A stretch of DNA of 41,872 bases. It comes from Candidatus Thorarchaeota archaeon. Its GTDB lineage: Archaea > Asgardarchaeota > Thorarchaeia > Thorarchaeales > Thorarchaeaceae. The notes beneath the pieces were generated by a model. That model saw only the letters and a program-made list of their open reading frames with translations, had not been told where the DNA came from and did not search any database. Every line of letters starts with the position of its first letter. Position 1 is the stretch's first letter. The DNA is taken from positions 1 through 41,872 of the forward strand of contig JARGGA010000002.1 in the NCBI GenBank assembly GCA_029210805.1, written 5' to 3'. This document shows positions 3,815 to 18,958 of the stretch, piece by piece. The position numbers and the translations under genes are program-made.

Positions 3815-3849
3815 GAACACGTGTTCCAATAATGTATTACAAGTATTAC
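3815..3849 (+). promoter_or_regulatory. Composite element upstream of pan: GAACACGTGTTC palindrome plus TGTATTACAAGTATTAC motif
   Basis: Perfect 12-bp palindrome at 3815-3826 and the motif at 3833-3849. The same order and orientation recur upstream of iorA (18350-18393 on the minus strand), including the flanking caatatt. Confidence 0.6.
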
Positions 3850-3955
3850 TTTATTCCAGATCACGCGAATTCACCTTTTGACTAATAACAAGGTAGCTCG
3901 TTGACCACTAAGGATATGCTTAAGTAATTTGAGAAGGATGAAAGGTTGAGGTGTC

Positions 3956-5167
3956 ATGATGCCTGGAAGTACAGATACGAAGAAGAATGGTGAGGTAGAA
4001 GACGAAACTTACAGTCAGAGCTACACAAGACATCTTGAACGACGACTTCGTGCACTTGAAACTGAAAAACAAATACTCCAAGCAGAAAGAGGAAGACTCG
4101 AAAAGGAAACTCAGACTCTTCGTACCGAGCTTGAAAAGCTCAGACAGTCCCCACTAATTACTGCAACTATCTCTGAGATGCTAGAAGATGGTAGGGCGGT
4201 TGTCAAAAGCTCCACAGGTCCCAATTTTGTTGTTCATGTATCTTCTGGTATTTCCAAGGAAAAATTACAACCTGGTATGAGGGTTGCTCTGAATCAACGA
4301 AGCTTTGCCATTACACAAGAACTTCCACCCTCTAGAGACCCTATGATTAGAGCAATGGAAATCGAGGAGGCTCCCTCAATAGCATATTCGGACATTGGAG
4401 GCTTGCAGGATCAGCTCAGGGAGATTCGCGAAACTGTTGAGTTACCTCTTTCAAGTCCGGAGCTTTTCAAGCAGGTTGGCATTGAACCTCCAAAAGGAGT
4501 GTTACTTACTGGTCCTCCAGGTACTGGAAAGACGCTGAGTGCGAGAGCAGTTGCCCATGAAACAAATGCAACCTTCATCCGTGTAATTGGATCGGAACTT
4601 GTTCAGAAGTTTATAGGTGAGGGTGCTCGTCTTGTTCGAGAAATCTTCATGATGGCAAAGGAAAAAGCTCCATCTATTGTCTTTGTAGATGAGCTTGATG
4701 CAGTTGGTTCGCATCGATTAGATATTGCTACATCTGGAGACCGTGAGGTCCAACGAACTCTCATGCAATTACTCTCTGAACTTGATGGATTTGAAACTCG
4801 AGGACAGGTTGCGATTATTGGTGCAACTAATAGACCAGATATTCTCGATCCCGCCCTCCTTAGACCCGGCCGCTTCGATAGAATAATTGAATTCCCCTTC
4901 CCAGATGTTGATAGCCAAAAAGAAATCTTCAAGATTCATACTCGTGGAATGAACATTACCACAGGAATTAATTTCGAGAAACTTCTATCTAGCAACACGA
5001 AGCTTACTGGAGCCGATATCAAAGCGATATGTACTGAAGCAGGAATGTTTGCAATCCGAGATGGGCAGACATGTGTATCGCAGAATCATTTCCGAAAAGC
5101 GATTACCAAGGTCGAAGACAGAGGCAAAGGTAACGACGGTTCTGCTCCTTCTGGTATTTACTGCTAG
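3956..5167 (+). CDS. pan: Proteasome-activating nucleotidase (PAN, AAA+ ATPase)
   Basis: N-terminal coiled coil, an OB segment, Walker A GPPGTGKT, Walker [28 protein letters not shown], and a C-terminal HbYX-like IYC. A GAGGTG Shine-Dalgarno-like box sits at 3948-3953. The start is the ATG at 3956 or 3959. Confidence 0.95.
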
Positions 5168-5171
5168 CCAT

Positions 5172-5189
5172 TGTATTACAATAAATACA
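5172..5189 (+). promoter_or_regulatory. 18-bp motif copy TGTATTACAATAAATACA
   Basis: Lies 4 nt after the pan stop and 14-20 nt before the next start (GTG 5203 / ATG 5209). This position fits a core promoter for a leaderless or near-leaderless mRNA. Confidence 0.6.
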
Positions 5190-5202
5190 AAACATTTGTT
5201 GA

Positions 5203-6051
5203 GTGAGTATGCGGTATAAAGAATATCTCAGGAATGAGTTGGATAAGAATAACCCTGATAATCTTCCACTCCCGAAAGGTTATCATCTCATAGGACATGT
5301 TGCCCTACTAGTGTTGAATTTTGAAGACCGTGATTTTGCTACGAAAGTTGGTAAGTGTACACTTGGATATGATAGTAGAATTCGGTCTGTAGCAATCAGA
5401 ACTGGACCCACTTCAAGTGACATACGGAAACCGGTATACGAATTAATCGCTGGTCAATCAGATACACTTACCACACATATTGAAAACAATGTCAAATTCC
5501 GGATAGATCCTTTGAGGGTAACATTTTCAGGAGGTAATAGAAGGGAAAGGATTTCTCTTCCTCAGTTTGTTCAATCGCATGAATACGTTGTAGATATGTT
5601 TGCATGTGTAGGACAGTTTGGGCTTCATATTGCTAAGACTGCAGGCGCAAAAGTATTGGCTATCGAAATGAACCCTGAAGCTTATTCACTGCTGGAAGAA
5701 AATATCAGAATAAACCATGTTGAAAATAAGATGCAAGCAGTCTTTGGTGACTGTCGCAAGGTACATCCCAATGGTGTTGCAGATCGTATTATTATGGGAT
5801 ACCTTCCGGGTACAATAGACTTCCTTCCTTCAGCTTTGGATACTCTTTCTCAAGAGGGAGGGACGATTCATATCCATGACTCACTTCCTGAGAATGAAAT
5901 TGGGGATTATTGTAATACTATTAATACATTAGCATCGGAATGGGGATTTGCTTCAGTTGTTCTACCAAGAAAGATAAAGCATTACTCGCCAGGAATTTCA
6001 CATTATGTATTTGATGTATCAGTTCTGCCTAATGAAGCGTCTGAAGCATAA
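5203..6051 (+). CDS. Trm5/Taw2 (Met-10+) family SAM-dependent tRNA methyltransferase
   Basis: GYHLIGHVALL, SAM motif VVDMFACVGQFGLHIA and DRIIMGYLP. At about 280 aa it is closer to Taw2/TYW2 than to Trm5b in size. Confidence 0.8.
   Translation: MSMRYKEYLRNELDKNNPDNLPLPKGYHLIGHVALLVLNFEDRDFATKVGKCTLGYDSRIRSVAIRTGPTSSDIRKPVYELIAGQSDTLTTHIENNVKFRIDPLRVTFSGGNRRERISLPQFVQSHEYVVDMFACVGQFGLHIAKTAGAKVLAIEMNPEAYSLLEENIRINHVENKMQAVFGDCRKVHPNGVADRIIMGYLPGTIDFLPSALDTLSQEGGTIHIHDSLPENEIGDYCNTINTLASEWGFASVVLPRKIKHYSPGISHYVFDVSVLPNEASEA
5911..5928 (+). promoter_or_regulatory. Near-perfect motif copy TGTAATACTATTAATACA inside the Trm5/Taw2-like CDS
   Basis: Matches 17 of 18 positions of the copies at 8929 and 12055. 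It points toward nac, whose start is 168 nt downstream, and the true spacer 6052-6095 has no copy. Confidence 0.4.
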
Positions 6052-6095
6052 TCGTTTTATCGTCAATGGAGAGGTAGCAACAAGAGGAATCTTTG

Positions 6096-6479
6096 ATGGG
6101 ATTTAGAGGAATGTCACCCAAACAAATGGCGCGCATGATGAAAAAAATGGGCATATCACAAGATGATCTGAAGGGCGTAAAAGAGGTCATCATTCGTTTT
6201 GAAGATAAGGAATGGGTGATAGAAAATGCTCAGGTTGCCATTGTTAAACAAGCCGGAAGTGAGTCTTATCAGGTTTCAGGTAGTAAAATTGAGAGAGCAT
6301 TGACCACAGGTATGTCAGTTGATAGTAATGTTGAACCAGAGCCCGAGATTGAAATACCAATTGAAGATGCAGCTCTTGTTGCAGGACAGACAGGAGTAGA
6401 TATTGAAACCGCGACTCAGGCCCTAAAGGACACCAAAGGAGACTTGGCTGCCGCGATTCTAAAACTCAGACAACCCTAG
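6096..6479 (+). CDS. nac: Nascent polypeptide-associated complex protein (archaeal NAC, NAC + UBA domains)
   Basis: MGFRGMSPKQMARMMKKMGI, a NAC beta-barrel segment, and a C-terminal UBA-like EDAALVAGQTGVDIETATQALKDTKGDLAAAI. ATG at 6096 (the track begins at the TTG at 6093). Confidence 0.85.
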   Translation: MGFRGMSPKQMARMMKKMGISQDDLKGVKEVIIRFEDKEWVIENAQVAIVKQAGSESYQVSGSKIERALTTGMSVDSNVEPEPEIEIPIEDAALVAGQTGVDIETATQALKDTKGDLAAAILKLRQP

Positions 6480-7123
6480 GAAGATTGTTCCAACTGCATT
6501 CGATCGCGAATAATCTTTAGTCGTATGAAATCTTCTCTTTCGCGTTCTTCCAGAGCAAGTTTCACAAAACGAGCTGTAGCATCCAATCGGGGGATTACTA
6601 CAGTTTCCAAAGCAGATACGCGACGTTTTGTTCGTTCTATCTCCAGAGCCAAACGCTTGACGGTGGATTCAATTTCTGCAAGACGCACTAACGATTTCAA
6701 TGCTTCTCTAAACTTGATACTCATTGTATCAAGTCTTGCACTGGAATCAGGTAGTGAATATGGCAACTCTGGTACATGTTGTTCCACTGAAAGAACAGGA
6801 ACACGGACACCCATCATTGACCGGGTGGCAATGCTAATTTCTGTCTGTACATTACTGGCATATGCAAATTCGATTACTCTAGCAGGTCCCATAATCATTT
6901 TGGCTTGGGTTAAACTTGAGAATGCCTCGGCCAATGCAGATTCTACTGCCTGTCTGGCTTCCTTTATTTCTGCAATGGCATTGAAAAATTCCATAATTAG
7001 TGAATCGCGTTTTTCTTTGAGTAGATTATGACCACGTTCAGCTAGGCGCATCCTATTCTTCAATCGAAGAAGTTCCATTCGGGTTGTCTTAGTACCTGCC
7101 AATACCTTGCTCATTGTGGTCAC
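6476..7123 (-). CDS. atpD: A/V-type ATP synthase subunit D
   Basis: TRMELLRLKNRMRLAERGHNLLKEKRDSL and a long coiled-coil layout typical of AtpD/NtpD. Its stop overlaps the nac stop in the palindrome CTAG (6476-6479). Confidence 0.9.
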   Translation of the reverse strand: MTTMSKVLAGTKTTRMELLRLKNRMRLAERGHNLLKEKRDSLIMEFFNAIAEIKEARQAVESALAEAFSSLTQAKMIMGPARVIEFAYASNVQTEISIATRSMMGVRVPVLSVEQHVPELPYSLPDSSARLDTMSIKFREALKSLVRLAEIESTVKRLALEIERTKRRVSALETVVIPRLDATARFVKLALEEREREDFIRLKIIRDRMQLEQSS

Positions 7124-7198
7124 TTCACTGTTACTTTGAATCAGTCATATGTAGTGAATCACACAGTATATGATTTCCTAAAACTGTTGTGATGGATA

Positions 7199-7477
7199 TT
7201 ATGCTAGGGTGAATGTTAGCGCACTTAATACTACACCAATCAGGCATATGATTAACCACTCACGAACGTATTTCTGTACTAAGTGAGGGCTGTCACTAAT
7301 CTGTCCAGTTGCAATAAAAGTCATTATTGAAATAAATAGAAATGCAAATGGAAGGGAAGCTGTAGTGCCGTCAGTGGGAGCATCAGCAATGAATATGACA
7401 CCAACGAGAAGGCCGAATATCATAAAGCTAAGTATCATCAAAGAGTTCAAAATTCGTTGGATCCTGCTTACGTCCAT
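7199..7477 (-). CDS. Small membrane protein (about 3 TM helices)
   Basis: Three hydrophobic stretches in 92 aa. No recognised family. Confidence 0.5.
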   Translation of the reverse strand: MDVSRIQRILNSLMILSFMIFGLLVGVIFIADAPTDGTTASLPFAFLFISIMTFIATGQISDSPHLVQKYVREWLIICLIGVVLSALTFTLA

Positions 7478-7624
7478 ACTATGATTCTCCTAGTTTGCAG
7501 ATCATACTAGAATGCCTGCCCGTCAAACACACGGCTTTATTCAGTTCAAAAAGGTTGTGTATTGAACTTGGCGCGATTCGTATATTTCTCACACAATCTT
7601 TATCAGGTATATAATTGTACAAAT

Positions 7625-7651
7625 TGTATTACAATAAGTAATTGTGATACA
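7625..7651 (+). promoter_or_regulatory. Motif copy TGTATTACAATAAGTAAT plus the TGTGATACA half-site
   Basis: The 9-mer core is at 7625-7633 and a variant half-site at 7643-7651. A GAGGT box lies at 7654-7658 and the ATG at 7666. Confidence 0.6.
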
Positions 7652-7665
7652 ACGAGGTTGTAGCC

Positions 7666-8640
7666 ATGACGATTGCAATTCATGAGTCCGCGCTCATTCG
7701 ACATTTTAACACACGTAAAGAAACGCTCCGCGCGTGGGAAGAAAATATAGGTGCACGTTTTAGCCCCTTTAGGGGTTTTAAGATGCCTGATTCGCGTCTC
7801 TACTGCGAGCATCCTGATTTTCTTGATTCTATAGTTGATCTAATCATTACTAATGAGAGACATATCTTTCTTAGAGGTCCAGTTGGATCAGGGAAGAGCA
7901 CCTTGATGCTTTTGGCATTGAGAGATTTACCTACCCTTGCAGATCGAAGAGGTAACAAATTCATAACTGGATATGTAGGCATGACAGGACTTTATGAGAA
8001 ACAGATGTCAGCAGCTATTGCTGATTCATTGAGAATCAAATATCGACGTTCTTGGGAATCTAGTCAGATTATTGATGCGGTCGCTCAGGAGAGTGTACGA
8101 AGATATATCGAGGAAAAAAGTCGTACCGCCCTCTTCATTGAGGACGTTGCTGATAACCAAGAAGCTGCGTTCCATAAGCTTCGATATTTAGCTGATTTGC
8201 CAACTGAGGAAATGAAAGATGATTATAGAACGGCACTTGATGAACCAATTGTAACACTAGTCATGAGCGGAACTAAGCTTTATTGGAATGCAATGCTTTC
8301 ATTCCTTCCACAGATAGCTGATAGAACAGAGCCATTGGACGTTCCTGCACTGGGGGATAGCAAAGCAAGGGAATTTATTGGTCGTAGGATTGCGTATGCA
8401 AAAGGAACCATCGATTCTTTCGATTCTGCCAATTACGACGTTTATCCATTTCATGACGACGCGATAACAGTACTTAACACTGCCGCAAGAGGGAACCCTC
8501 GTGACCTTCGAATGTTGGCCAGAGGGTGTCAACAAGTTGCAGCTGAAAATTTCAAACGGGCTGGTAGCCCTGATGTAGACCCAGAGATAGCTCGGCTTGT
8601 ATCAGAAGCGTATGAAACTATTCTCAAGGAGGTCAGATGA
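7666..8640 (+). CDS. AAA+ ATPase of the ExeA/TniB/ORC-like (AAA_22-type) class, with no winged-helix domain
   Basis: Walker A LRGPVGSGKSTL, Walker B-like ALFIEDVAD, and a sensor-2-like ARGNPRDLRMLARGCQQVAA. At 324 aa it ends without a C-terminal DNA-binding domain. Confidence 0.75.
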   Translation: MTIAIHESALIRHFNTRKETLRAWEENIGARFSPFRGFKMPDSRLYCEHPDFLDSIVDLIITNERHIFLRGPVGSGKSTLMLLALRDLPTLADRRGNKFITGYVGMTGLYEKQMSAAIADSLRIKYRRSWESSQIIDAVAQESVRRYIEEKSRTALFIEDVADNQEAAFHKLRYLADLPTEEMKDDYRTALDEPIVTLVMSGTKLYWNAMLSFLPQIADRTEPLDVPALGDSKAREFIGRRIAYAKGTIDSFDSANYDVYPFHDDAITVLNTAARGNPRDLRMLARGCQQVAAENFKRAGSPDVDPEIARLVSEAYETILKEVR

Positions 8641-8918
8641 TCATGAGTGTATTGGGCAAATATAGAAAGGATGAAGAACGACGGGATGATGAAGACAAAA
8701 CAACTGACACTTCACCAAAAATAGATACTGTGCCAGTTGCTGTGCCAAATAAAGAAAGAAAGAGTCCAATTATGTCGTTCAGTGTCACAACAGAACTCAG
8801 ATCCTGCCTGAAAGCTGTTAGAAACGAAAAGGCAATTAACTTGAGTATGTGGGTGGAACGCACATTGAGAAATGCTTTGTCAGAAGAATTTCCGGATATT
8901 GCAGAAGCGCATCTTTAA
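8637..8918 (+). CDS. Ribbon-helix-helix (CopG/Arc-like) DNA-binding protein with a charged disordered N-terminus
   Basis: The C-terminal MSFSVTTELRSCLKAVRNEKAINLSMWVERTLRNAL fits a beta-strand/helix/helix RHH pattern. Its start overlaps the ATPase stop in ATGA (8637-8640). Confidence 0.6.
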   Translation: MIMSVLGKYRKDEERRDDEDKTTDTSPKIDTVPVAVPNKERKSPIMSFSVTTELRSCLKAVRNEKAINLSMWVERTLRNALSEEFPDIAEAHL

Positions 8919-8928
8919 AGAGTCATCT

Positions 8929-8946
8929 TGTAATACAATTAATACA
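8929..8946 (+). promoter_or_regulatory. 18-bp motif copy TGTAATACAATTAATACA at a convergent 3' junction
   Basis: Identical 18-mer to 12055-12072. It lies 10 nt after the stop of the RHH gene and 2 nt before the stop of acdA. Confidence 0.6.
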
Positions 8947-8948
8947 AG

Positions 8949-10331
8949 CTAGATTCTTCTGTTGAGCATAGTTGCATATTCTGCGGCTTTTGTCATGCAT
9001 AGAGCTGCAAGAGCCGGATCATCGTAGCAGGGTATTCTATTCATTTCCAGCAAATCCTTCCCGGGTTTTCCAACATCACCTGCAAGCCATACACCTACTA
9101 CTGGTTTATCGGTTGCCGTTATTCTAACACCTTCCAACGTCCCCGCTGCATGTTCTGCTTGAGTCATCCCCGCGAAGGTAGGAACGGCGCATACTACTAG
9201 CAACATATCCACATTGGAGTCTTTCAGAAGAAGTTCAGTCGCGACACGATACTCCCGTCTGCCTCCGCTGGCCAAAACATCGATTGGATTGTTTATGGAT
9301 GCCATTGGTGATAGGACTTGACGTAGATCGTTATATGTTTCTTTTTCGAATTGGGGGATATTGAGACCTAGTTCTGAAGCAGCATCTGTAGCAAGTACTC
9401 CTGCTCCACCTGTATTACTAATAATACCAATATTACATCCTTTAGGTATTGGTTGATAATCAAATATCTTGCAAATTTCAAGCAGAGAATCAAGAGTAGG
9501 TGCAGACACGCATCCTGCTTGTCGCACCATGCCATCGAATACTTCAGTTGATCCGGCAAGTGATCCTGTGTGACTTTGAGTGGCCCGACCACCAATCTCA
9601 CTACGACCACCTTTTAGAACAACGACTGGCTTTTTACGAGACGCACTTTGAAGCGAGTCAAAGAATCCTCTACCATTATCAACTCCTTCTACATAGACAG
9701 CAATTGCTTTAGTTCTCTGATCATCACGGAAGTAATCAAGAACTTCTACAAAACCAACATCAGCAGCATTACCTACACTTGCGAATTTACTAACACCTAT
9801 TCTCTTCGCACGTGTGGTGTAGATGATCATTCCTCCAAGAGCTCCGCTTTGAGAAAGTAGAGCAATATTTCCACGTTCAGGCATCATAGTAAATGTGGCA
9901 TTGAAAAGACGGCTATTAGAAACTCCAACACAGTTAGGTCCAATGATACGAACTCCAGCCTGATTAGCTGCATTCACGAGAGATTCTTCAAGCTTTGCAC
10001 CTTCAGAATCTACCTCACTGAATCCACCAGAAATGACAACTGCATGGCTGGCTCCAGCCCTTTTCACCTCAGCCATTAACCCTGGGCAATATTTGGCAGC
10101 CACAGCTATGACCACCAAGTCAACTGGATTAGGTAAATCACTCAGACTTGGGTATGCCTTCACACCAAGGACATATTCGCTTGATCTGCTTATTGGATAG
10201 ATATCGATTTCCGATGTAAGAAGATTCATCAGAATTGAATTACCAAGTTTTCGATAGTCTGATGATGCACCAACAAGAGCGACTGACTTTGGATTAAAGA
10301 ACAAATCAATGGATGATTCTTGTCTGTTCAT
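8949..10331 (-). CDS. acdA: ADP-forming acetyl-CoA synthetase alpha subunit / CoA-binding succinyl-CoA-synthetase-like protein
   Basis: KSVALVGAS, IIGPNCVG, ALLSQSGALG and the phosphohistidine loop ATQSHTGSLAG. The start is trimmed to the ATG at 10331 (MNRQESS); the track extension to 10403 runs through the motif at 10394. Confidence 0.85.
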   Translation of the reverse strand: MNRQESSIDLFFNPKSVALVGASSDYRKLGNSILMNLLTSEIDIYPISRSSEYVLGVKAYPSLSDLPNPVDLVVIAVAAKYCPGLMAEVKRAGASHAVVISGGFSEVDSEGAKLEESLVNAANQAGVRIIGPNCVGVSNSRLFNATFTMMPERGNIALLSQSGALGGMIIYTTRAKRIGVSKFASVGNAADVGFVEVLDYFRDDQRTKAIAVYVEGVDNGRGFFDSLQSASRKKPVVVLKGGRSEIGGRATQSHTGSLAGSTEVFDGMVRQAGCVSAPTLDSLLEICKIFDYQPIPKGCNIGIISNTGGAGVLATDAASELGLNIPQFEKETYNDLRQVLSPMASINNPIDVLASGGRREYRVATELLLKDSNVDMLLVVCAVPTFAGMTQAEHAAGTLEGVRITATDKPVVGVWLAGDVGKPGKDLLEMNRIPCYDDPALAALCMTKAAEYATMLNRRI

Positions 10332-10393: not shown

Positions 10394-10411
10394 TGTAATA
10401 CAAGTATTAAT
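10394..10411 (+). promoter_or_regulatory. Motif copy TGTAATACAAGTATTAAT
   Basis: Exact 9-mer core at 10394-10402, in the 75-nt spacer between the stop of the 10407-11660 gene and the acdA start. Confidence 0.55.
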
Positions 10412-11660
10412 AGGATTTCCAGTTCTCTCTGTAAAACCGCCGCAATGCTGAAGAATTCTTACAGTCTGATGATAGAGTATTCTCTACTATGGCACGAGTT
10501 TCGGGACATCTATATTTTATATTCTTTAGTGATACAAGTGCGGATTCGCGAACCTTTGCAATTCGTGTTGTACAAATGGTATTGATTAGTACGTTTACAA
10601 TTGAAGAGTGATAGTAATTACCAAGTGCTCCAATAGCAGGAGTCACTATCCGAGGATTTTTTTCGTAAGTCATTTCATCCAGTATAATTGCTGATTCAAG
10701 CATGCGGATTGATATATGATCTCTGATTGATGATAGTAACGCACGATACGATTGACTGGATTCGGTAGCTTTGTATTCATCAATCGCACTACGTAGCAAA
10801 TGGTTCAATGTAGGCACTGAGTGTTTGCTGCCAAGTGTACGTAGACCTTCTGTGTTATGATTGATGATGAAGTCAAGTAAGTCTGCATAATGAGGGCTCA
10901 ATGAAGGTTTATCGAATGGATTATTACTCGTTATATCCTTCTTGGACCTCTGCAGCTTATCCTTAATTGTTGGTGATACTTGTATTACTGATAATACCAA
11001 TTCGTACTGTTCCGAGGATATTGTTCGACCAAGAACTCCCAGATTGGCCAGGGCTATACGACCAAGTTCGGTATACCAGAGATCTTCGATTAAAAGTGAA
11101 TTGCGTTGTCGTACCACATCGACTAGAGTAATTATCTGGGTTTGAGCCATTTCTATTGCTATTGCTAAGTTGGTTGGAATTCTATGACCAGAGTTGTATA
11201 CATCGAAAAACAATGTATCTCCATTTGCAACTTGATTTTCAGCAGATTCTGTAACTGTATCCAGAAGGAGTCGTATTGCATCAACACTTGAATCAGCAGA
11301 TATTGTGCCCAAAAGAAGTTCTTCTGTAGGTTCGGGAATCGGTTCTAATCCTGAACAACCAAGAAGTTCGAATACGACCTCTCTGAATTTCAAGGGTTCC
11401 ACCATAACTCGAGGATGAGCATATCCTATAGGAACGGAATATTGTGTTCGGCTGGCACTGATTAGATATTCAATTACTGTTGACCATCCGTCAGTTAATT
11501 CCACATTGGTAGTTATATCACTCAAGTCTTTGATTCGCCTATCACCTATTGCATTAGCAATTTCTTGAATTACAGTTTCTTCTTCTATTTCCTTGATTTT
11601 CTGTTTGCTTGCTTTCATTATTCGATGTAGTGGGTTATCATCACCATTCAATACTATCAC
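10407..11660 (-). CDS. Hypothetical all-alpha (HEAT/ARM-like repeat) protein
   Basis: Long helical ORF with a C-terminal part (PAIGALGNYY...RIAKVRESALVSLKNI) that resembles HEAT repeats. The start is uncertain: GTG at 11660 or ATG at 11618. Confidence 0.55.
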   Translation of the reverse strand: MIVLNGDDNPLHRIMKASKQKIKEIEEETVIQEIANAIGDRRIKDLSDITTNVELTDGWSTVIEYLISASRTQYSVPIGYAHPRVMVEPLKFREVVFELLGCSGLEPIPEPTEELLLGTISADSSVDAIRLLLDTVTESAENQVANGDTLFFDVYNSGHRIPTNLAIAIEMAQTQIITLVDVVRQRNSLLIEDLWYTELGRIALANLGVLGRTISSEQYELVLSVIQVSPTIKDKLQRSKKDITSNNPFDKPSLSPHYADLLDFIINHNTEGLRTLGSKHSVPTLNHLLRSAIDEYKATESSQSYRALLSSIRDHISIRMLESAIILDEMTYEKNPRIVTPAIGALGNYYHSSIVNVLINTICTTRIAKVRESALVSLKNIKYRCPETRAIVENTLSSDCKNSSALRRFYRENWKSY

Positions 11661-11702: not shown

Positions 11703-11741
11703 TGTAATTGTATACAGATATTACTTGTATTACAATGTATA
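11703..11741. promoter_or_regulatory. Motif cluster TGTAATTGTATACA...ATATTACTTGTATTACAATGTATAAA
   Basis: Exact 9-mer core at 11726-11734 plus flanking half-sites, just upstream of the 10407-11660 gene. Read on the plus strand it also points into the long spacer. Confidence 0.55.
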
Positions 11742-12029
11742 AACCACAGAAAAAGGGGGAAAAAAGCCGGTTCTAGGATTAGAACTATGTACAATTGTGA
11801 TTGATTATAGTATGAGTGTGTCGTATCAATAGTAAGCGATTGGCTGTGGGATAGGCTTCACATACAACCACAATCGATCACTGTTGCTATCTCTATCTCC
11901 TCAAATGCAATAAACTAGTAGATACAATGGTGATGCAAAGCGGTTGGAAACCAATCCGTGTTGACCGCGATTCGTGTTTGAATGCGACACATTCGTGCTG
12001 CTTTTTAGTTCCTTTTTCTGGAAGCTAGT

Positions 12030-12054: not shown

Positions 12055-12072
12055 TGTAATACAATTAATACA
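12055..12072 (+). promoter_or_regulatory. 18-bp motif copy TGTAATACAATTAATACA
   Basis: Identical 18-mer to 8929-8946. It ends 1 nt before the stop codon (12074-12076) of the minus-strand gene. Confidence 0.6.
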
Positions 12073-12073: not shown

Positions 12074-12631
12074 TTATTCAGATTCGGAATTTGTTCGTTT
12101 TTTTGAGATCTCTGATTTTAGAATCAAGGGAGAAGCCAGTTCATTTAGAGCTTCGTTAATCGATCGCTCTGCCGTTCTATAGCTCTCGATCTCCTCATTG
12201 CTTAGCTCCTCTCTGCCTGCAAGAACCTCTCTAATTCTACGATAGTCACCTATCTTCGATGCAATTTCTTCAAAAGGTCTGAAAACAGCGAAATCGAATA
12301 GGTCAAGATATGCCAGTAGCAGCATAGTATACATACATCGAGTTACATTCCGTCGCGATTGACGTAGAGTTCGATTAAATGAACCTCGAGACACGCCTCT
12401 TGTTCTGCTGGTAGATTTGCTACGAATTGTAGCCTTGTCCTCGTAGGGAACGTGATTACCAAGTTGATCTTCTACCACCAGGTCAATCAGTAGTGTTTCC
12501 AACTGTGCTTTTGTGAGTAATGATTGCTCTAGTAGAATTTTCATAATCGGTTCGTTCATGACTCTGCGTGCCCGTCTTCCTATACTTTTCATATCTCGTG
12601 GGTGCTCTGATTCTTGTAAATCCTCATTCAT
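12074..12631 (-). CDS. Putative DNA-binding protein with a sigma-70 region 4 / DUF134-like helix-turn-helix
   Basis: LTKAQLETLLIDL...RGVSRGSFNRTLRQSRRNV resembles the LT.EE.E..RL...GVSR.T..R.L..AR.K HTH pattern. The rest of the protein is helical. Confidence 0.5.
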   Translation of the reverse strand: MNEDLQESEHPRDMKSIGRRARRVMNEPIMKILLEQSLLTKAQLETLLIDLVVEDQLGNHVPYEDKATIRSKSTSRTRGVSRGSFNRTLRQSRRNVTRCMYTMLLLAYLDLFDFAVFRPFEEIASKIGDYRRIREVLAGREELSNEEIESYRTAERSINEALNELASPLILKSEISKKRTNSESE

Positions 12632-12771: not shown

Positions 12772-12789
12772 TGTGATACTTGTAGTACA
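12772..12789 (-). promoter_or_regulatory. Degenerate motif copy (plus strand TGTGATACTTGTAGTACA)
   Basis: Two half-sites with the family spacing, 141 nt upstream of the 12631 start and oriented toward it. Confidence 0.4.
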
Positions 12790-12794
12790 TTTCT

Positions 12795-13208
12795 CTAGCT
12801 TGGGAGCGTCCATTCAGCTTCCGGAGATACTTCAACAAATCCAAGAATGAGGTTTCCTCGAATCTCATCAAACTTGTAGACACCGAAAACATATCGTTCT
12901 CGTCCAAGATCCCATTCGAATCTTCCCCTGGCGAGAGTGTGTTGGAAAACATTCCGGCATTGTTTTCGTACTGATGCAAAGAGATTCTTGAATCTCCTAC
13001 GTTGCGAAGGACGAATACCCCAACGTTCGAGAATGAATCTGTTAGCAAGACTATTACTTGAAATCAGTATTGCTCTCTTTTTTCGATTGCTGGCACGTGA
13101 AGAGTCTCTCAGTACATTACGTAAGCAATCGGGTAAATTTGCTAGAATGGAAGGAGTGGTTTCAGGTTCACGAATGAGATAACCCTTGTTTTCTGAAGAC
13201 GGCTGCAA
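12795..13208 (-). CDS. Hypothetical basic protein (137 aa, TTG start)
   Basis: Longest of three overlapping ORFs at this locus. Arg-rich N-half and a beta-rich C-half (RYVFGVYKFDEIRGNLILGFVEV). No family recognised. Confidence 0.4.
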   Translation of the reverse strand: MQPSSENKGYLIREPETTPSILANLPDCLRNVLRDSSRASNRKKRAILISSNSLANRFILERWGIRPSQRRRFKNLFASVRKQCRNVFQHTLARGRFEWDLGRERYVFGVYKFDEIRGNLILGFVEVSPEAEWTLPS

Positions 13209-13260
13209 CTTTAATCATACTTTGATACTGCTGATACCTTAAGAGCACCTACAAATACTT

Positions 13261-13286
13261 TGTAATACACGTACTATATGTGATAC
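13261..13286 (+). promoter_or_regulatory. Motif copy TGTAATACA...TGTGATAC
   Basis: Exact 9-mer at 13261-13269 plus a half-site at 13279-13286, in the divergent spacer upstream of hypF. Confidence 0.55.
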
Positions 13287-13358
13287 GCCGAGATTATGTT
13301 GTCATTTCATTTGATTTAATACCAGCTAGTATTCCGATGCGGTTAGAGGTTCCACTAA

Positions 13359-15725
13359 TTGCAAAAGAGAGCTTCAATTCATGTGAAGGGTATTGTACAA
13401 GGAGTCGGATTCAGGCCTTTTGTATACAGAAAAGCAAAGGAACTCTCTTTGTTAGGTTACGTACTGAACTTGGGAGATGCTGGAGTAAGAATCGTAGTTG
13501 AAGGCGAAGAGAGTCATATTGAAATGTTAATCAATGAAATTCACACTGATCCCCCATCTATATCCAGGATAGATACATTCACACTAGATTGGCAGGAAAC
13601 GCAAGGAGATTTCCAAGAATTCTTAATAACAAAATCATCTACTAAGAGGAGCGAGAATTCGGAACCAGTTATACCTCCCGATATCGCAATGTGTGATGAT
13701 TGCTTACCGGACCTAATGAATCCCAATTCGTGCTGGTATCTCTACCCCTTCACATCATGTGCTGCATGTGGACCACGTTTCTCAACAATCACTGATCTTC
13801 CATATGATAGGCCTAACACTACAATGGCCGATTTTCCTCTATGTGATACGTGTAATACAGGTTATACGAATCCTTTAGATCGCAGATATCACGCCCAAAC
13901 CACTGCGTGTGAAAACTGTGGACCAATCTACAGACTATATGATGCTCACAGAAACGAATTAATTTCCTCGGATACTGTTCAAGAGATTTCCAAGTTGCTT
14001 GAGAAAGGATCAGTAGTAGCTATGCAAGGCATAGCTGGAACCCATCTTGTAACAATCACTTCTGACCCTAGACCTATACGTAAACTCAGAAAGAGAAAGA
14101 AGAGATCTCAACGGCCTTTTGCAATAATGGTACGGTCCTTAGAAGTTGCAAAGGAGTTGTTTGATATTACTCCTGCAGAACTTGCAATGATGAACACTTG
14201 GAGAAGGCCTATTGTACTTGTAAAAAAGAAGAAACTCGATTGTACCAATTTGAGTGTATTAGGTGTAATACCGAAAGAGTCATTGGAAGAAATAGCACCA
14301 GGTTTGGATTCATTGGGTGTCATGCTTCCTTATGCGCCAATACATCATATGCTCTTTCAGTGTCTTGATGAGGCCTCACTGGTAATGACTAGTGCAAATC
14401 CTTCTGGTGTACCCATGTATATTACTTCAGAGAAGATACTATCCTCATTGAACGATATCGCAGATCACTTTCTCCTTCATAATAGAAGAATCCATCAACG
14501 CGCAGACGATTCAGTTGTGAAATTTACTACTGATGACAATCCTGTTTTTATTAGAAGAGCAAGGGGCTATGTACCAGAACCAATACCAACAAATGGGGTT
14601 TCAAAATCAGTCAGACTCCTTGCGGTGGGTCCAGAAGAAAAGTCAACTGTTTCTATTCTGAAATCAGGGATGATTTATCCGTCGCAACATATTGGTGACA
14701 CAAACAACATAGAGAGTATTGAATTTCTTGAGAATGCATACCGTCACTTAATGCGTCTTGTTGGACTCAACGATATTGATGGTATAGCAAGTGACTTACA
14801 TCCTGAATTTCTGAGTACACTTCATGCGGAAACTATTTCCCAAGAAAAGCAGATTCCACTCTTTCGTATTCAGCATCATCATGCTCACCTTGCTTCGATG
14901 CTAGTTGATCATAAAGTGCCACTTGATACAAGTATTGTTTGTATTACAACTGATGGTTTTGGTTATGGACAAGACAAAACTGCATGGGGGGGTGAAGTTT
15001 TAGCTGGGAATGCAAAAGAGTACTTGAACTTAGGAGGATTAGAATCTTATTTACTTCCCGGAGGTGATTTGACTGCTGTCTATGCGGCCAGATCATTAGT
15101 GGGTATGTTGCATAATGATACTGATGAGAAGACCATTCTCAGAATTACCGAAGGTATGCCTGTATCGCACAACGAAGTCATCTCATCAAGTACGCTCAAT
15201 ATGATAAGAGGTGCAATCGATCAGGAGGTCAATGTTGTAAGAAGTTCAAGTGCTGGAAGATTCTTGGATGCATCTGCGGCATTGTTAGGGATTTGTAATG
15301 AGAATACGTATGATGGCGAATGCCCTATGAAACTTGAAGCTGTTGCCAAGAAAGGAACATTGAGTTTGGCAACTAAGATTTTTAGTGATGGAAAGAAACA
15401 GATTCTTGACACATCTGGTATGTTGCATGACTTGGCAAACCTTCACAAGGCAGGTGCACGTAGATCCGAACTGGCCTATGCTGCCCAGTGGTATTTAGGT
15501 GATGCACTGGCACATATTGCAATTAGTATTGCTGAAGAGAGGGACGTAAAGCGGATTGGGTTCTCGGGAGGTGTTGCTCTGAACACTATTATCTCAAAAG
15601 CCATAGTAGAGAGAGTTGAAGTTAATGGAATGAAGCCACTACTGCATAGGACCGTTCCGCCTGGAGACGGAGGCATATCAATCGGTCAGATTGCGGTTGG
15701 AACGGCTTCGATCACTGATATATAA
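13359..15725 (+). CDS. hypF: [NiFe]-hydrogenase maturation carbamoyltransferase HypF
   Basis: Acylphosphatase-like VQGVGFRPFVYR, two zinc-finger pairs (CDDC...CAACGPRF and CDTC...CENCGP), a YrdC-like middle region, and a Kae1-like C-terminus with GGVALN and PPGDGGISIGQ. TTG start with a GAGGT box 9 nt upstream. Confidence 0.93.
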   Translation: MQKRASIHVKGIVQGVGFRPFVYRKAKELSLLGYVLNLGDAGVRIVVEGEESHIEMLINEIHTDPPSISRIDTFTLDWQETQGDFQEFLITKSSTKRSENSEPVIPPDIAMCDDCLPDLMNPNSCWYLYPFTSCAACGPRFSTITDLPYDRPNTTMADFPLCDTCNTGYTNPLDRRYHAQTTACENCGPIYRLYDAHRNELISSDTVQEISKLLEKGSVVAMQGIAGTHLVTITSDPRPIRKLRKRKKRSQRPFAIMVRSLEVAKELFDITPAELAMMNTWRRPIVLVKKKKLDCTNLSVLGVIPKESLEEIAPGLDSLGVMLPYAPIHHMLFQCLDEASLVMTSANPSGVPMYITSEKILSSLNDIADHFLLHNRRIHQRADDSVVKFTTDDNPVFIRRARGYVPEPIPTNGVSKSVRLLAVGPEEKSTVSILKSGMIYPSQHIGDTNNIESIEFLENAYRHLMRLVGLNDIDGIASDLHPEFLSTLHAETISQEKQIPLFRIQHHHAHLASMLVDHKVPLDTSIVCITTDGFGYGQDKTAWGGEVLAGNAKEYLNLGGLESYLLPGGDLTAVYAARSLVGMLHNDTDEKTILRITEGMPVSHNEVISSSTLNMIRGAIDQEVNVVRSSSAGRFLDASAALLGICNENTYDGECPMKLEAVAKKGTLSLATKIFSDGKKQILDTSGMLHDLANLHKAGARRSELAYAAQWYLGDALAHIAISIAEERDVKRIGFSGGVALNTIISKAIVERVEVNGMKPLLHRTVPPGDGGISIGQIAVGTASITDI

Positions 15726-15726
15726 T

Positions 15727-15744
15727 TGTATTAACTGTAATACA
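15727..15744 (-). promoter_or_regulatory. 18-bp motif copy (plus strand TGTATTAACTGTAATACA) at a convergent 3' junction
   Basis: Begins 1 nt after the hypF stop and ends 4 nt before the iorB stop. Confidence 0.6.
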
Positions 15745-15748
15745 TTTA

Positions 15749-16375
15749 CTATTCCTTCATAAACTGGGTAATCATTGCAAAACCAGCTTCAAAGGCACTC
15801 ACATTGATCTCCTCAAATCTGCTTGGAAATGCTTCTCGAACAACCTGTATAGCGGATTCCTTGCGAATAGGCGTGATTTTACTTCCGATTATAGCTCCGA
15901 ACATTACAATATTCATGGATCTACTACTACCAGCTTCTTTTGCAACCTTCATAGCATCGAATTCATGTATGGAGTTAGTAAATTTCCTGATAGCATTTCT
16001 AATCTCATCTTCCGATGGATATTCTGCTTTGCCCATTGATACGGCTACAGGATACTGTACATGTGAGTTCATAATGGCGATACCATCTTTTCTGATGAGG
16101 TGTATCTCTCTGAGAGTTTCAACTGGTTCGAATCCTATAACTAAATGAGCTGTACCTGAATCCACAATGGGACCTTTTGCTTTCTCGCCAATCCGTACAG
16201 TGCATACTACATGGCCACCTCGTTGTGCCATACCATGAATTTCCCCAACACGAACATTGTGTGAATCAAGCAAAGCAGCTTTAGCCAAAATCTCTGCAAG
16301 AGTTAGAACTCCTTGTCCTCCTACTCCAGCAATTGCAATGTTAATGACATCCGTATTATTTGTAATACCAACCAT
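15749..16375 (-). CDS. iorB: Indolepyruvate:ferredoxin oxidoreductase beta subunit
   Basis: IAGVGGQGVLT and EIHGMAQRGG, about 200 aa, placed immediately after iorA. Confidence 0.9.
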   Translation of the reverse strand: MVGITNNTDVINIAIAGVGGQGVLTLAEILAKAALLDSHNVRVGEIHGMAQRGGHVVCTVRIGEKAKGPIVDSGTAHLVIGFEPVETLREIHLIRKDGIAIMNSHVQYPVAVSMGKAEYPSEDEIRNAIRKFTNSIHEFDAMKVAKEAGSSRSMNIVMFGAIIGSKITPIRKESAIQVVREAFPSRFEEINVSAFEAGFAMITQFMKE

Positions 16376-18268
16376 TTACTTCTCCTCCTGTTTGATTGCA
16401 CCTTGTGGACAGACGGAAACACACGTTCCACAGAAGTTACAGAGTGTTTCGTCTATTACAGCTTGTTCAGTTTCAGTGTCTTGATACATTGCAGGACAAG
16501 ACAATCGATTAAGACAACGTTTGCAGGAGTTACATACTTCGGTATCAACATAGTACTTTGGAGGGTATTCACCGCTTTTTCGCCGATCAGCGGCTGTAAG
16601 GAGAGCACATGGATCCCTTGATACAAGAACTGCAGGAGATTTATTCTCGCGAGTCCACTTGACCATCTCACGTACTTCCTTAACAAGTCCGGCCATAGAT
16701 TCGAAGGTGGTGATAGTCTTTACATACTTGATACCTAGTCCCTTGGAGACCTCTTCGATATCGAGTGGCGGAACTTCCTCTCGCATACCAGTGATCCCAG
16801 TTCCAGGATGAGGTTGATGGCCAGTCATGGCTGTTGTTCGATTATCAAGAACAACTAGACTTACTGGGTGTTTATTGTAAACGGCATTTACTAAGCCAGG
16901 GAGTGCGGAAGCAAAGAATGTACTATCCCCAACCGATGCCACAATATCTTGACCTGTTACCTGGGCAAGACCACAAGCAGTTGTAATTGATGACCCCATG
17001 TCAAAGAGAATGTCTGCTGTTTCCAGAGGGGGGGATATACTAAGAGTGTAGCATCCAATATCTGAAGGATAAATTGCCTTGCCTCTGGTTGCGGTACGAA
17101 TAGCAAAATATGATGCCCGGTGAGGACAGCCTGCGCATAGTAATGGGGGCCGAGGAGGCATCTCCGGGATTTGTTCAGATTGTTTGTCAATATCCTTCCA
17201 GTTAATACGTGTATTACGATTACTAATCTTGCCTAATGATTCTATTACGATTCGGGGGCTATATTCGCCCACTCGGGAGAAGTACCCTTGTTCTTTTCCA
17301 AGGATTTCTACACTAACTTCATTTAGTTGAGCAAGTCGTCTTGCGTGTGTTTCCAGGAATGGTTCCAGTTCTTCAACAACTACAACACGTTTGTGACGTT
17401 TAAGAAATTCAACCATGCTCTTTTCGGGAACGGGGTGAGTAATTCCAAGTTTGTAAATCTCGGTTTCTAGTTCTAAATGATCAAGTGCCTCAACTACGTA
17501 GTTGTAAGCCACTCCACTAGTAAGTATTCCGAGGTCACCATTGCCTTCAAAGAAATTGAGTGGACTGTTCTCAGCTATTTCTTTTGCTTTCTCAATCTTT
17601 GCTAGTAACTTAGGGTGCATCTTACGAGCAACCGAAGGGATAGGAACAAGTCGAAATGGGTCTTTCTCAAACTCGACAGTTTTCGGTCGTTCCTTGATAA
17701 TATCTAATACAACAGGTGCACGGGTGTGATTTACACGAGTTGTTGTTCTTAGTAGAACAGGAAGTTCTAGTTTTTCCGAGAGTTCAAAGGCATCATGAAC
17801 CATATCCTTTGCCTCAGCAGGATCTGCAGGTTCTACCATTGGCATGTTACCCATAAGTGCATAGTAACGACTATCGTTCTCATTCTGTGAGCTCCACATA
17901 CTCGGATCATCTGCAACCACAATGACCATGCCTGCACGAACTCCTATGTAGGCCAAAGAAAAGAATGGATCAGCTGCAACATTCAATCCAGGACCTTTAC
18001 ATATCATCATGGATCTTACACCAGCAACTGCCGCAGCTCCTGATACTTCAAGGGCTACTTTTTCATTAGTGCTGAATTCAAAGTAAAAGTTAGGAATGTG
18101 AGGTGCCATGAATGTTAGATTGTTTCCAATCTCACTACTCGGGGTGCCAGGATACAGTGCTACAAGTCGAACACCAGCCTCTAACACTCCTCGAGCTATT
18201 GCCTCATTAGCTAGAAGAAGCACTTTCTTCCCAGGAGTGTTTTCAAGTAGATCCTTGGGTTTGGTCAT
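16376..18268 (-). CDS. iorA: Indolepyruvate:ferredoxin oxidoreductase alpha subunit
   Basis: GNEAIARG, YPGTPSSE, a TPP-binding GDSTFFASALPGL, and a C-terminal 2x[4Fe-4S] region (CNSCKRC...CP and CNFCGTCVSVCP). The start is trimmed to the ATG at 18268, with GGAGG 5 nt upstream. The track extension to 18418 runs through the regulatory motifs. Confidence 0.92.
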   Translation of the reverse strand: MTKPKDLLENTPGKKVLLLANEAIARGVLEAGVRLVALYPGTPSSEIGNNLTFMAPHIPNFYFEFSTNEKVALEVSGAAAVAGVRSMMICKGPGLNVAADPFFSLAYIGVRAGMVIVVADDPSMWSSQNENDSRYYALMGNMPMVEPADPAEAKDMVHDAFELSEKLELPVLLRTTTRVNHTRAPVVLDIIKERPKTVEFEKDPFRLVPIPSVARKMHPKLLAKIEKAKEIAENSPLNFFEGNGDLGILTSGVAYNYVVEALDHLELETEIYKLGITHPVPEKSMVEFLKRHKRVVVVEELEPFLETHARRLAQLNEVSVEILGKEQGYFSRVGEYSPRIVIESLGKISNRNTRINWKDIDKQSEQIPEMPPRPPLLCAGCPHRASYFAIRTATRGKAIYPSDIGCYTLSISPPLETADILFDMGSSITTACGLAQVTGQDIVASVGDSTFFASALPGLVNAVYNKHPVSLVVLDNRTTAMTGHQPHPGTGITGMREEVPPLDIEEVSKGLGIKYVKTITTFESMAGLVKEVREMVKWTRENKSPAVLVSRDPCALLTAADRRKSGEYPPKYYVDTEVCNSCKRCLNRLSCPAMYQDTETEQAVIDETLCNFCGTCVSVCPQGAIKQEEK

Positions 18269-18349
18269 TTGGGGGTCCTCCGTTATCCCGTCTTGGACAG
18301 ACTGCCCGGAACTATTACAGTGTATCAATATTGTGGTAATATACATTGT

Positions 18350-18393
18350 TGTATTAATTGTAATACAAGGAAATATGTTGGAACACGTGTTCC
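18350..18393 (-). promoter_or_regulatory. Composite element upstream of iorA: 18-bp motif plus the perfect 14-bp palindrome GGAACACGTGTTCC
   Basis: Motif at 18350-18367 (plus strand TGTATTAATTGTAATACA) and palindrome at 18380-18393. Further half-sites lie at 18311-18349. The reverse complement aligns with 3805-3849 upstream of pan. Confidence 0.65.
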
Positions 18394-18415
18394 AGTTAAT
18401 ATTGCCCAGCCAATA

Positions 18416-18439
18416 CACCCCTCTATTTCCACTGGAGAA
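18416..18439 (-). other. ORB-like origin recognition box with G-string (ORB-a)
   Basis: The reverse complement reads TTCTCCAGTGGAAATAGAGGGGTG. It matches the archaeal ORB core (TCCAGTGGAAA) and the downstream GGGG element. Confidence 0.6.
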
Positions 18440-18557
18440 TGAAAAATGGAGAGATTTGAGGCGGGTATTATAATAATAATGAAAAATACAGATGAATACA
18501 GACCCTTAATTACATATTTATACTTTTGTATTTTTGATCTGTGTGAATCTTAATTAT
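18440..18557. other. AT-rich core (candidate DNA unwinding element) between inverted ORB-like boxes
   Basis: A 118-bp stretch visibly richer in A/T than its flanks (ataataataatgaaaaata..., atatttatacttttgtatttttga...). No credible ORF. Confidence 0.5.
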
Positions 18558-18579
18558 TTCGAGTGGAAACAAGGGGGTT
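18557..18579 (+). other. ORB-like origin recognition box with G-string (ORB-b)
   Basis: Reads TTTCGAGTGGAAACAAGGGGGTT. It is inverted relative to ORB-a, and both G-strings are distal to the AT-rich core. Confidence 0.6.
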
Positions 18580-18590
18580 GCAATGGTCTT

Positions 18591-18604
18591 GGAACACGTG
18601 GTCG
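18591..18604. promoter_or_regulatory. Degenerate copy of the GGAACACGTGTTCC palindrome (GGAACACGTGGTCG)
   Basis: Mirrors the perfect copy at 18380-18393 on the other side of the ORB pair. Confidence 0.5.
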
Positions 18605-18613
18605 CATTTTCCA

Positions 18614-18904
18614 TTATTTTACCTCCGCAGCTACTTCATAGATTCTGAGATCTAAAATATCCGAATACTCGTCGAATAGCATATCGAACACTCCCCGGTG
18701 TTCACCAGGGACCAGAATTGCAGAATCAGCAACTGCTTTGGAACCAAGACACTCCTCGATTAGTCCAACCTTCCGTTTCTCTTTCACACCCGACTTCGTC
18801 TTCCAAGAATACGTAAACCCATAGAGCTCCTTAGTAAAAGAAACCCGTTTTGCATTTGATTGACGTGCCTGCTTACAATCATAGAGATACAGATACTCTG
18901 GCAT
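18614..18904 (-). CDS. Hypothetical small protein (96 aa)
   Basis: Trimmed to the ATG at 18904 (MPEYLYLYDCKQ...), because the track extension to 19081 crosses the divergent promoter region. The beta-alpha start (YLYLYD...AKRVSFTKELYG) vaguely recalls Cas2/VapD-like ferredoxin folds, but I would not assign it. It contains an internal GAACAC-N6-GTGTTC at 18686-18703. Confidence 0.45.
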   Translation of the reverse strand: MPEYLYLYDCKQARQSNAKRVSFTKELYGFTYSWKTKSGVKEKRKVGLIEECLGSKAVADSAILVPGEHRGVFDMLFDEYSDILDLRIYEVAAEVK

Positions 18905-18922
18905 CTTCAAACCCCTATGACT

Positions 18923-18958
18923 AGAACACATGTTCTGAATTTTATTATGTGTAATACA
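18923..18958 (+). promoter_or_regulatory. Composite element in a divergent spacer: AGAACACATGTTCT plus TGTAATACA
   Basis: AGAACA-N2-TGTTCT at 18923-18936, 19 nt from the 18904 start. The 9-mer core lies at 18950-18958, 78 nt upstream of the 19036 start. Confidence 0.55.

Follow-up and report, generated by a model that had tools for sequence, protein, structure and literature searches.

The 41,872-nucleotide stretch of DNA analyzed here (the window; contig JARGGA010000002.1 of a Candidatus Thorarchaeota archaeon) contains a 15-kb domain in which a short palindromic repeat recurs between and within genes. From left to right, the domain encodes PAN, Trm5, NAC, AtpD, a membrane protein of 92 amino acids (aa), a 324-aa AAA+ ATPase, a 91-aa protein, ACD (ADP-forming acyl-CoA synthetase), conserved uncharacterized proteins of 417, 185 and 137 aa, HypF and IorBA, and it ends at an origin-like locus upstream of iorA. 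The proteins of the window are 75–96% identical to those of many Thorarchaeota metagenome-assembled genomes (MAGs). Asgard archaea are the closest prokaryotic relatives of eukaryotes and are hard to grow; their chromosome organization, replication and segregation are essentially unknown. A literature search yielded no prior description of the motif or of the gene cassette in Asgard archaea, nor of Asgard or Thorarchaeota origins, and a full-text search for the motif string returned primers and unrelated sequences only.

The 9-bp palindrome TGTAWTACA occurs in 14 exact copies in the window, against 0.47 ± 0.70 copies expected and a maximum of three in dinucleotide shuffles, which ruled out a composition artefact as the source of the repeat. 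This excess agrees with the preliminary description of this DNA, in which about one copy or fewer had been expected; 13 of the positions given there are exact, and the copy placed at 14941 lies at 14940. The copies are tightly clustered, 13 of the 14 falling within 15,117 bp, a tightness matched by only 0.038% of random placements. With up to three mismatches, the 18-mer TGTAWTACAATTAATACA has 17 matches in the window (0.08 expected); it is perfect at 8929, 12055 and 18350 (reverse complement), and has one mismatch at 5172, 5911 and 15727 (reverse complement). This 18-mer had been taken for the element itself. When aligned, the 18-mer sites resolve into two adjacent 9-bp units with the core GTAWTAC, and many sites contain three or four units. 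Core-to-core spacings, counted for GTAWTAC with at most one mismatch in the domains of the window and four relatives, pile up at 9 bp (81 cases), 18 bp (26), 27 bp (7) and 36 bp (8), all other distances being represented 0–5 times each. The element therefore consists of arrays of two to four tandem palindromic 9-bp units, WGTAWTACW, in strict 9-bp phase, and the 18-mer is the two-unit case. Rfam families, a Pumilio-like RNA site, a terminator and parS were each rejected as the identity of the repeat.

Roughly 20 arrays are distributed over the 15 kb, approximately one per 0.8 kb. When realistic gene starts are used, 11 of the exact copies are intergenic, including those at 10394, 18359 and 18950. 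Between 3.7 and 19.1 kb, 11 of the 13 spacers carry a copy if the degenerate one at 12772–12789 is included; outside this interval no spacer of the window does. Both counts stand as first reported, and each of the near-copies noticed within genes (at 5911, 9411, 10974, 14255, 16354 and 17201) proves to be a genuine array of two or three units. The leftmost spacer array of the domain, TGTATTACA AGTATTACT at 3833–3850, precedes PAN by 106 nt and follows the palindrome GAACACGTGTTC (3815–3826) at a distance of 6 nt; this combination at 3815–3850 is confined to the window, the relatives having no array there. The array TGTATTACA ATAAATACA at 5172–5189, of which an orthologous copy exists in the relative L212, is located 5 nt past the PAN stop codon and 14 nt ahead of the Trm5 start. 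A perfect two-unit array (8929–8946) occupies the 30-bp gap between the convergent genes of the 91-aa protein and ACD, and another two-unit array (10394–10411) sits where the 5′ end of ACD meets the stop of the 417-aa gene. A three-unit array upstream of the latter gene (11717–11743) forms an inverted pair with the perfect two-unit array at 12055–12072, which ends 2 nt short of the stop codon of the 185-aa gene. The degenerate two-unit array TGTGATACT TGTAGTACA (12772–12789) separates the 185-aa and 137-aa genes; TGTAATACA CGTACTATA TGTGATACG (13261–13287) lies between the 137-aa gene and hypF, which are divergent, and a two-unit array (15727–15744), also found in L216, is located in the 23 bp that separate hypF from the convergent iorB.

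Inside genes, two-unit arrays are located in Trm5 (5911–5928), in hypF (14255–14272 and 14931–14948), at the 5′ end of iorB adjoining the iorA stop (16352–16369) and in iorA (17201–17218), and three-unit arrays in ACD (9411–9437), in the 417-aa gene (10972–10998) and in the zinc-finger region of hypF (13842–13868). About half of all arrays lie in convergent gaps or inside genes. Distances from array to start codon range from 14 to >100 nt, and the arrays occur on either strand relative to transcription. A common orientation toward the downstream gene, with the perfect unit distal, had been proposed; it fails at 18941–18958, where it is the perfect unit that lies nearer to the LKR (lysine-ketoglutarate reductase-like) gene, and also because several of the best copies, located between convergent genes, have no downstream gene.

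We compared the window with loci of 20 kb that surround the ATPase orthologue of four relatives (L212, L216, L218 and L219; GC content 39–48%). In all of them, the arrays extend from the PAN/Trm5 end to iorA and the origin, and the 5–7 kb further left are free of arrays. Over the five species, 47 exact 9-mers were counted in 73.8 kb of domain sequence versus 3 in 92 kb of flanks (p = 1e-13), and the density of arrays in the domain is ∼20 times that of the flanks. The flank sample includes the loci L221 and L222, which were found via RpiA and continue the left flank in relatives rather than providing a distant control; all of it lies within ∼35 kb of the domain. At several positions the orthologous spacers retain arrays, as the preliminary description had suggested verifying; for instance, both spacers flanking the ATPase operon contain them in every Thorarchaeota locus. 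When 185,579 species genomes were scanned for the exact 18-mer, 91 single matches were obtained, among which the only relatives were L074 (a Thorarchaeota MAG with nine exact 9-mers in 8 kb) and L034 (an uncultured archaeon), each with one copy per genome, inside the syntenic domain. Scanning metagenomes with the 18-mer gave chance matches only, among the matches listed.

Isolated two-unit arrays are also found outside the domain, at 1126–1143 and 23593–23610 in the window and at 4363–4380 in L222. The one at 23593–23610, within a nucleotidyltransferase-like gene, is the window's only exact copy beyond the domain; that in L222, TGTATTACAATTGATACA, is located between DUF1294 and DUF5661. Given these scattered arrays, the binder probably has a few dispersed sites as well.

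Conservation extends to positions at which no promoter is expected. Among the convergent gaps, arrays recur at the boundary between the 91-aa gene and ACD in all five species (in the gap itself in the window, L212, L216 and L219, just after the 91-aa gene in L218) and in the gap in L034 too, between NAC and AtpD in three species and between hypF and iorB in two. Intragenic arrays are found at matching places in all five species in ACD, in the 417-aa gene, twice in hypF (13842–13868 and 14931–14948) and at the iorB 5′ end; in the ACD array the codons are the same throughout. The core is 2–3 times commoner inside domain genes than after synonymous-codon shuffling, the observed count being reached by 6 of 300 shuffles for the window, 5 of 200 for L212 and 0 of 200 for the other three species; genes outside the domain showed no consistent core excess over such shuffles. 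At alignment columns with an invariant residue, the codon was identical in all five species in 14 of 24 cases within arrays versus 96 of 1487 elsewhere (odds ratio 20, p = 5.6e-11). Together, the codon identity and the excess over shuffles indicate that the intragenic copies are retained by selection at the DNA level.

The domain is centred on an operon of two genes. The first (7666–8640, + strand) encodes the 324-aa ATPase, with the Walker A motif GPVGSGKS, and the second (8643–8918, + strand) the 91-aa protein; the gap between stop and start is 2 nt. Both genes are found as a pair in all Thorarchaeota loci examined and in both distant lineages described below. Across Thorarchaeota, the ATPase shows 75–96% amino acid identity and 82% mean column identity, neighboring genes showing only 66–73% identity at the DNA level, and this unusual conservation suggests a core function. 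An AlphaFold2 model (mean pLDDT 85) matched best, in Foldseek searches, the Orc1/Cdc6 structures 1w5t, 1fnn and 2qby (E values of 5e-9 to 4e-8), followed by TnsC; Pfam returned weak matches to AAA_22 and AAA_16 only. The AAA+ module and lid correspond to those of Orc1/Cdc6, which places the protein in the initiator clade. It has no winged-helix domain, because the chain stops at residue 324, past the lid helices, and accordingly there was no match to the Cdc6 winged helix.

The 91-aa protein comprises an invariant N-terminus, MSxLxKYR (MSVLGKYRK here), a variable charged linker and a conserved C-terminal strand-helix-turn-helix with the succession PIVSFSV, TELRSCLKAVRNEK, AIN and LSMWVERTLRNAL. 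It is probably a ribbon-helix-helix (RHH) protein, a call based on the strand-helix-helix layout, on an in-register alignment with SIRV2 gp21, an RHH_1 protein and aCcr1 homologue, and on sub-threshold RHH_1 matches of distant family members. The hhalign match to gp21 is weak (pairwise E = 0.014, 3% probability). The distant members match RHH_1 in the right register with E values of 0.0014–0.047, below the cut-off (gp21 itself: 5.8e-6), and one of seven family members matches Pfam RHH_3 with E = 0.012. A profile search of 1.84 billion representatives retrieved only 12 relatives. Alignments by hhalign to CopG, ParG and Arc, for which approximate sequences were used, were out of register and non-significant, and tblastn against phage and archaeal-virus genomes gave chance matches only.

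The four-unit array TGTACAAAT TGTATTACA ATAAGTAAT TGTGATACA (7616–7651) follows a TATA-like GTATATAAT and precedes the ATG of the operon. An array at this promoter is present in all relatives, including the distant L213, and the site is likely to be an autoregulatory operator of the operon. In L213 (GC content 31%, ATPase 66% identical), two exact copies are left, one at the operon promoter and one in the origin core. In L224 (GC content 31%), the RHH protein has 113 aa and the neighboring genes differ except for hypF; no more than 3 kb separates the operon from seven two- or three-unit arrays, of which five lie in a 1.1-kb spacer past the RHH gene, and few others occur across 20 kb. The arrays thus follow the AAA+/RHH operon, a linkage seen in three lineages.

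At its right end, the domain abuts an origin-like core (18417–18578) formed by two inverted origin recognition boxes (ORBs; 18417–18437 on the − strand and 18558–18578 on the + strand) around a 120-bp AT-rich stretch. On each side, the ORB pair is bracketed by a palindrome (GAACACGTGTTC at 18381–18392; GAACACGTGGTC at 18592–18603) and then by a TGTAWTACA array. The left array, a perfect two-unit one at 18350–18367, lies 82 nt upstream of the iorA start (18268) and is conserved in L074, L212, L216, L219/L220 and L213; the right one, TTTATTATG TGTAATACA at 18941–18958, is its inverted partner. The core forms the boundary of the domain and stands outside the repeat family, the 9-bp repeat not being an ORB box. 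Cumulative GC skew turns at about 18–22 kb. The same layout upstream of iorA is seen in L212, L220, L074 and the distant L213, where one array copy is found inside the AT-rich core between the ORB boxes and the gene cluster adjoins cdc6 and the PolD small-subunit gene, an adjacency confined to the distant L213 and L214. Judged by these features, 18417–18578 is a candidate oriC, and the domain would lie beside a likely replication origin.

Further conserved features surround the origin-like core. A second palindrome, GAACAYRTGTTC, occurs at 3815–3826, 18381–18392, 18592–18603, 18924–18935 and 23099–23110, and also in L212, L216, L074 and L213. In the window it is found on both sides of the ORB pair, bracketing a 99-aa gene, upstream of PAN and inside the nucleotidyltransferase-like gene; it tracks the origin and not the AAA+/RHH operon, and none was seen in the L224 spacers inspected. 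The 99-aa gene (18614–18913, − strand) encodes a conserved protein of about that length with the motif RVSFTKELYGFTYSWKTKSG. All relatives, L213 among them, have this gene directly next to the ORB pair; its product matches no known family and might be a factor associated with the origin. A 490-bp spacer (22358–22847) full of TTCACAAT/ATTGTGAA repeats contains a third ORB box, a perfect one (22679–22699). This spacer adjoins the gene of a 210-aa protein with a winged-helix-like C-terminus; its equivalent in L213 lies between cdc6 and the orthologue of that gene.

The 9-bp unit has a counterpart in the Sulfolobales, where the RHH regulators aCcr1, aCcr2 and aCcr3 bind the aCcr1-box, A(T/G)G(A)TA(G)A(T/G)TACN, a 9-bp palindrome recognized by 58-aa proteins that has also been given as AGTATTA and as the older ccr-2 box TGTATTAT (PMC9976878, PMC9976892, PMC13199686). 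The box (AGTAATACN or TGTATTAT) and WGTAWTACW are 9-bp palindromes of the same consensus. Since an RHH dimer can read GTA-W-TAC in the aCcr1-box, an RHH protein is a natural candidate for the binder of the arrays. Both systems include a small RHH protein, here a probable one and a candidate binder, and some sites that are intragenic (PMC9976878, PMC9976892, PMC13199686). They differ in that the Sulfolobales have hundreds of dispersed single or paired boxes, whereas here tandem arrays in 9-bp phase are packed ∼20-fold into the 15 kb on one side of the origin. Moreover, the 91-aa candidate binder has a linker and a conserved peptide at its N-terminus, and its gene is co-transcribed with that of an AAA+ ATPase; the organism belongs to the Asgard archaea and not to the Thermoproteota, and homology of the binder to aCcr1 was not established by hhalign.

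Chromosome partition systems offer a second comparison. SegB, an RHH protein that works with the ParA-type SegA, has sites that cluster around segAB, 84% of them within genes (PMC12284271). The arrays are distributed in much the same way, although the SegB palindrome, TCTAGASTCTAGA, is different. The locus resembles SegAB, type Ib ParA/ParG and delta/omega in its two-gene operon of an ATPase followed by a small, probably RHH, candidate site-specific protein with a seemingly flexible N-terminal tail, in repeated sites beside the operon, the best ones nearest, and in further intragenic sites (PMC12284271, PMC8682754). A small putative DNA-binding protein is thus encoded directly downstream in the operon, and repeated candidate sites adjoin it. 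Omega heptads and ParG boxes are, like the repeat described here, arrays of short units. The ATPase sets the locus apart, being an Orc1/Cdc6-like AAA+ protein and not of the ParA/MinD deviant-Walker type; its closest structures, Orc1/Cdc6 and TnsC, are both AAA+. Bacterial parS sites are likewise palindromic, lie beside the origin, are often intragenic and serve as nucleation points, as the arrays may do, but they measure 16 bp against the 9 bp of our units, the arrays are far denser and their span much smaller, and no ParB (helix-turn-helix (HTH)/CTPase) gene was found here. Finally, the ATPase shares with Orc1/Cdc6 the initiator-clade AAA+ fold and lid and a GNPRDLR sensor-2-like motif, and the domain abuts ORB boxes; the ATPase differs in having no winged helix, the repeat is unrelated to ORB, and the reading of DNA would fall to a separate RHH subunit.

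Of the three readings put forward in the preliminary description, we favor the origin-proximal array of binding sites with a centromere-like or nucleoid-organizing function, because the conserved domain abuts the ORB/AT-rich locus and is centred on the operon that the arrays follow. In the form proposed here, to which we would give a probability of roughly 0.4, the phased units are bound cooperatively by RHH dimers, which repress their own operon and, with the Orc/Cdc6-like ATPase, build a nucleoprotein domain next to the origin. The dimers would most likely be those of the 91-aa protein (8643–8918). Each 9-bp unit would take up one dimer, with cooperation between neighbors as in the arrays of MetJ, omega and ParG. 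Binding at 7616–7651 would shut the operon off, as that array sits between the TATA-like box and the start codon. The ∼20 arrays on one side of the ORB/AT-rich locus, spread over 15 kb, would nucleate a higher-order nucleoprotein domain, and the N-terminal peptide MSVLGKYRK would engage the co-transcribed Orc1/Cdc6-like ATPase, which itself has no winged helix with which to read DNA. ATPase, small adaptor and repeats would thereby form a centromere-like or origin-organizing cassette.

Several observations weigh against this proposal. The RHH assignment stays below every curated threshold, the gp21 alignment has a probability of only 3%, and the 91-aa protein gave no significant match in searches of PDB sequences, single or profile, or in Foldseek searches of PDB and viral models. 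The array binder could instead be the 185-aa protein or an unlinked aCcr-like RHH protein encoded elsewhere in the genome. Known mechanisms of partition do not carry over directly to an ATPase that is not ParA-like. The window lacks a cdc6 gene, and a scan of 33 open reading frames (ORFs), most of those above 80 aa, detected no Cdc6 domains. Lastly, the sequence sampled outside the domain amounts to only ∼92 kb, all within ∼35 kb of it, and because of the sporadic arrays at 23593, at 1126 and at 4363 in L222, a sparse genome-wide regulon of ∼100 sporadic sites is still compatible with the data.

The strongest competitor to the cassette, an unlikely one in our estimate, is that the arrays are purely transcriptional operators. 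An aCcr-like RHH protein, whether the 91-aa one or a paralogue that is not linked to the locus, would use them to repress local genes or to set the timing of their expression, as aCcr1, aCcr2 and aCcr3 do with cell-cycle genes in the Sulfolobales, and the arrays would have no structural role. An operator of a local regulon was also among the earlier suggestions, and part of it holds: the unit consensus is that of the aCcr1-box (PMC9976878), the site at 7616–7651 is placed as an operator would be, and arrays lie 14–50 nt ahead of several start codons, those of Trm5, the AAA+ operon and the 99-aa gene among them. The sporadic arrays outside the domain would fit a regulon as well. Intragenic sites do not in themselves contradict it, given that aCcr2 and aCcr3 peaks in chromatin immunoprecipitation are also intragenic (PMC13199686). 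However, operators leave the copies at 3′ ends and within genes unexplained: the best and most conserved ones occupy convergent gaps, which have no promoter, and those inside genes are under selection at the DNA level. PAN, Trm5, NAC, AtpD, ACD, HypF and IorAB have no functional theme in common, the ∼20-fold density over the flanks recurs in five species, and in L224 five arrays fill the 1.1-kb spacer beside the RHH gene rather than gene starts.

Iteron-like control of replication, in which the RHH protein would tether the Orc1/Cdc6-like ATPase beside oriC to aid or limit initiation (by loading, by titration or as a second replicator), seems improbable. The ATPase is structurally nearest to Orc1/Cdc6 and has no winged helix of its own, arrays are located on both sides of the ORB pair and, in L213, within the AT-rich core between the boxes, and in that lineage the cluster remains beside Cdc6 and PolD. 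These points are offset by the spread of arrays over 15 kb of genes instead of a focus at the unwinding element, by the presence of canonical ORB boxes, which would suffice for a canonical Orc1, and by the inspected L224 spacers around the operon, in which no clear ORB box was seen.

A generic signal, whether a lineage-specific promoter (B recognition element/TATA) element, as was suggested early on, or an RNA-level 3′-end or protein-binding signal, was rejected as very improbable, for although the motif is AT-rich and some copies stand upstream of genes or just past stop codons, it is missing from the ∼17 window spacers outside the domain and from the spacers in ∼65 kb of relatives' flanks, it is palindromic and tandemly repeated in strict 9-bp phase, it occurs on either strand relative to transcription, in convergent gaps and, under DNA-level selection, in genes, it keeps no fixed distance to starts (14 to >100 nt), and it is accompanied by neither hairpin nor U-tract.

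The locus represents a system tractable in vitro: the 9-bp site is defined, its candidate binder has 91 aa, the Orc/Cdc6-like partner ATPase is highly conserved, and an ORB-type origin lies alongside. Should the cassette proposal hold, an RHH recognition code, GTA-W-TAC, would be common to Sulfolobales cell-cycle regulators and Asgard archaea, and an initiator-family ATPase would have been recruited into a partition-like or origin-organizing cassette, which bears on how ORC-type proteins pair with separate DNA-targeting subunits. More speculative, and in our view doubtful, is the wider notion of a hitherto undescribed Thorarchaeota machine for chromosome handling, in which a separate RHH adaptor would direct an ATPase that derives from Orc1/Cdc6 and has lost its winged helix to aCcr-box-like arrays over the origin-proximal 15 kb. 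In that case, the domain would be the first candidate centromere or origin-organizing domain in Asgard archaea, with an initiator-type rather than a ParA-type motor. If the arrays served only a local regulon, they would still be the first Thorarchaeota regulatory motif defined by phylogenetic footprinting.

Other features of the window concern its left end and the middle of the domain. In the relatives L212, L216 and L219 and in L221/L222, a block of ∼15 kb between PAN and the LOR-RpiA genes encodes an HTH_3 protein, TFE-alpha, DUF2110, S4/FtsJ, GatDE and PGK; it is absent at 3742–3955 of the window, and LOR abuts PAN here because these ∼15 kb are missing. A 332-aa ORF (1952–2950, − strand) contains a long Gly/Pro-rich low-complexity repeat (GGGPPGGGAPGGG...), which plausibly accounts for the over-represented words GGAGGCGG and GGTCCGCC and for a GC bump at 1–3 kb. 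The 185-aa protein (12074–12631, − strand), encoded between long array-rich spacers, has a weak match to the HTH-like DUF134 (E = 0.024). Between the 417-aa and 185-aa genes, and bracketed by the inverted TGTAWTACA arrays, lies a structured non-coding element (11747–12020, + strand) with a minimum free energy of −93 kcal/mol (z = −5.3) and no Rfam match. Its conserved blocks, GTTCTAAGATTAGAAC, GAGTGTGTC...GACACACTC and TCTATCTCCTCA, are common to L216, L219 and L074; the element itself is missing in L212 and may be a new small RNA.

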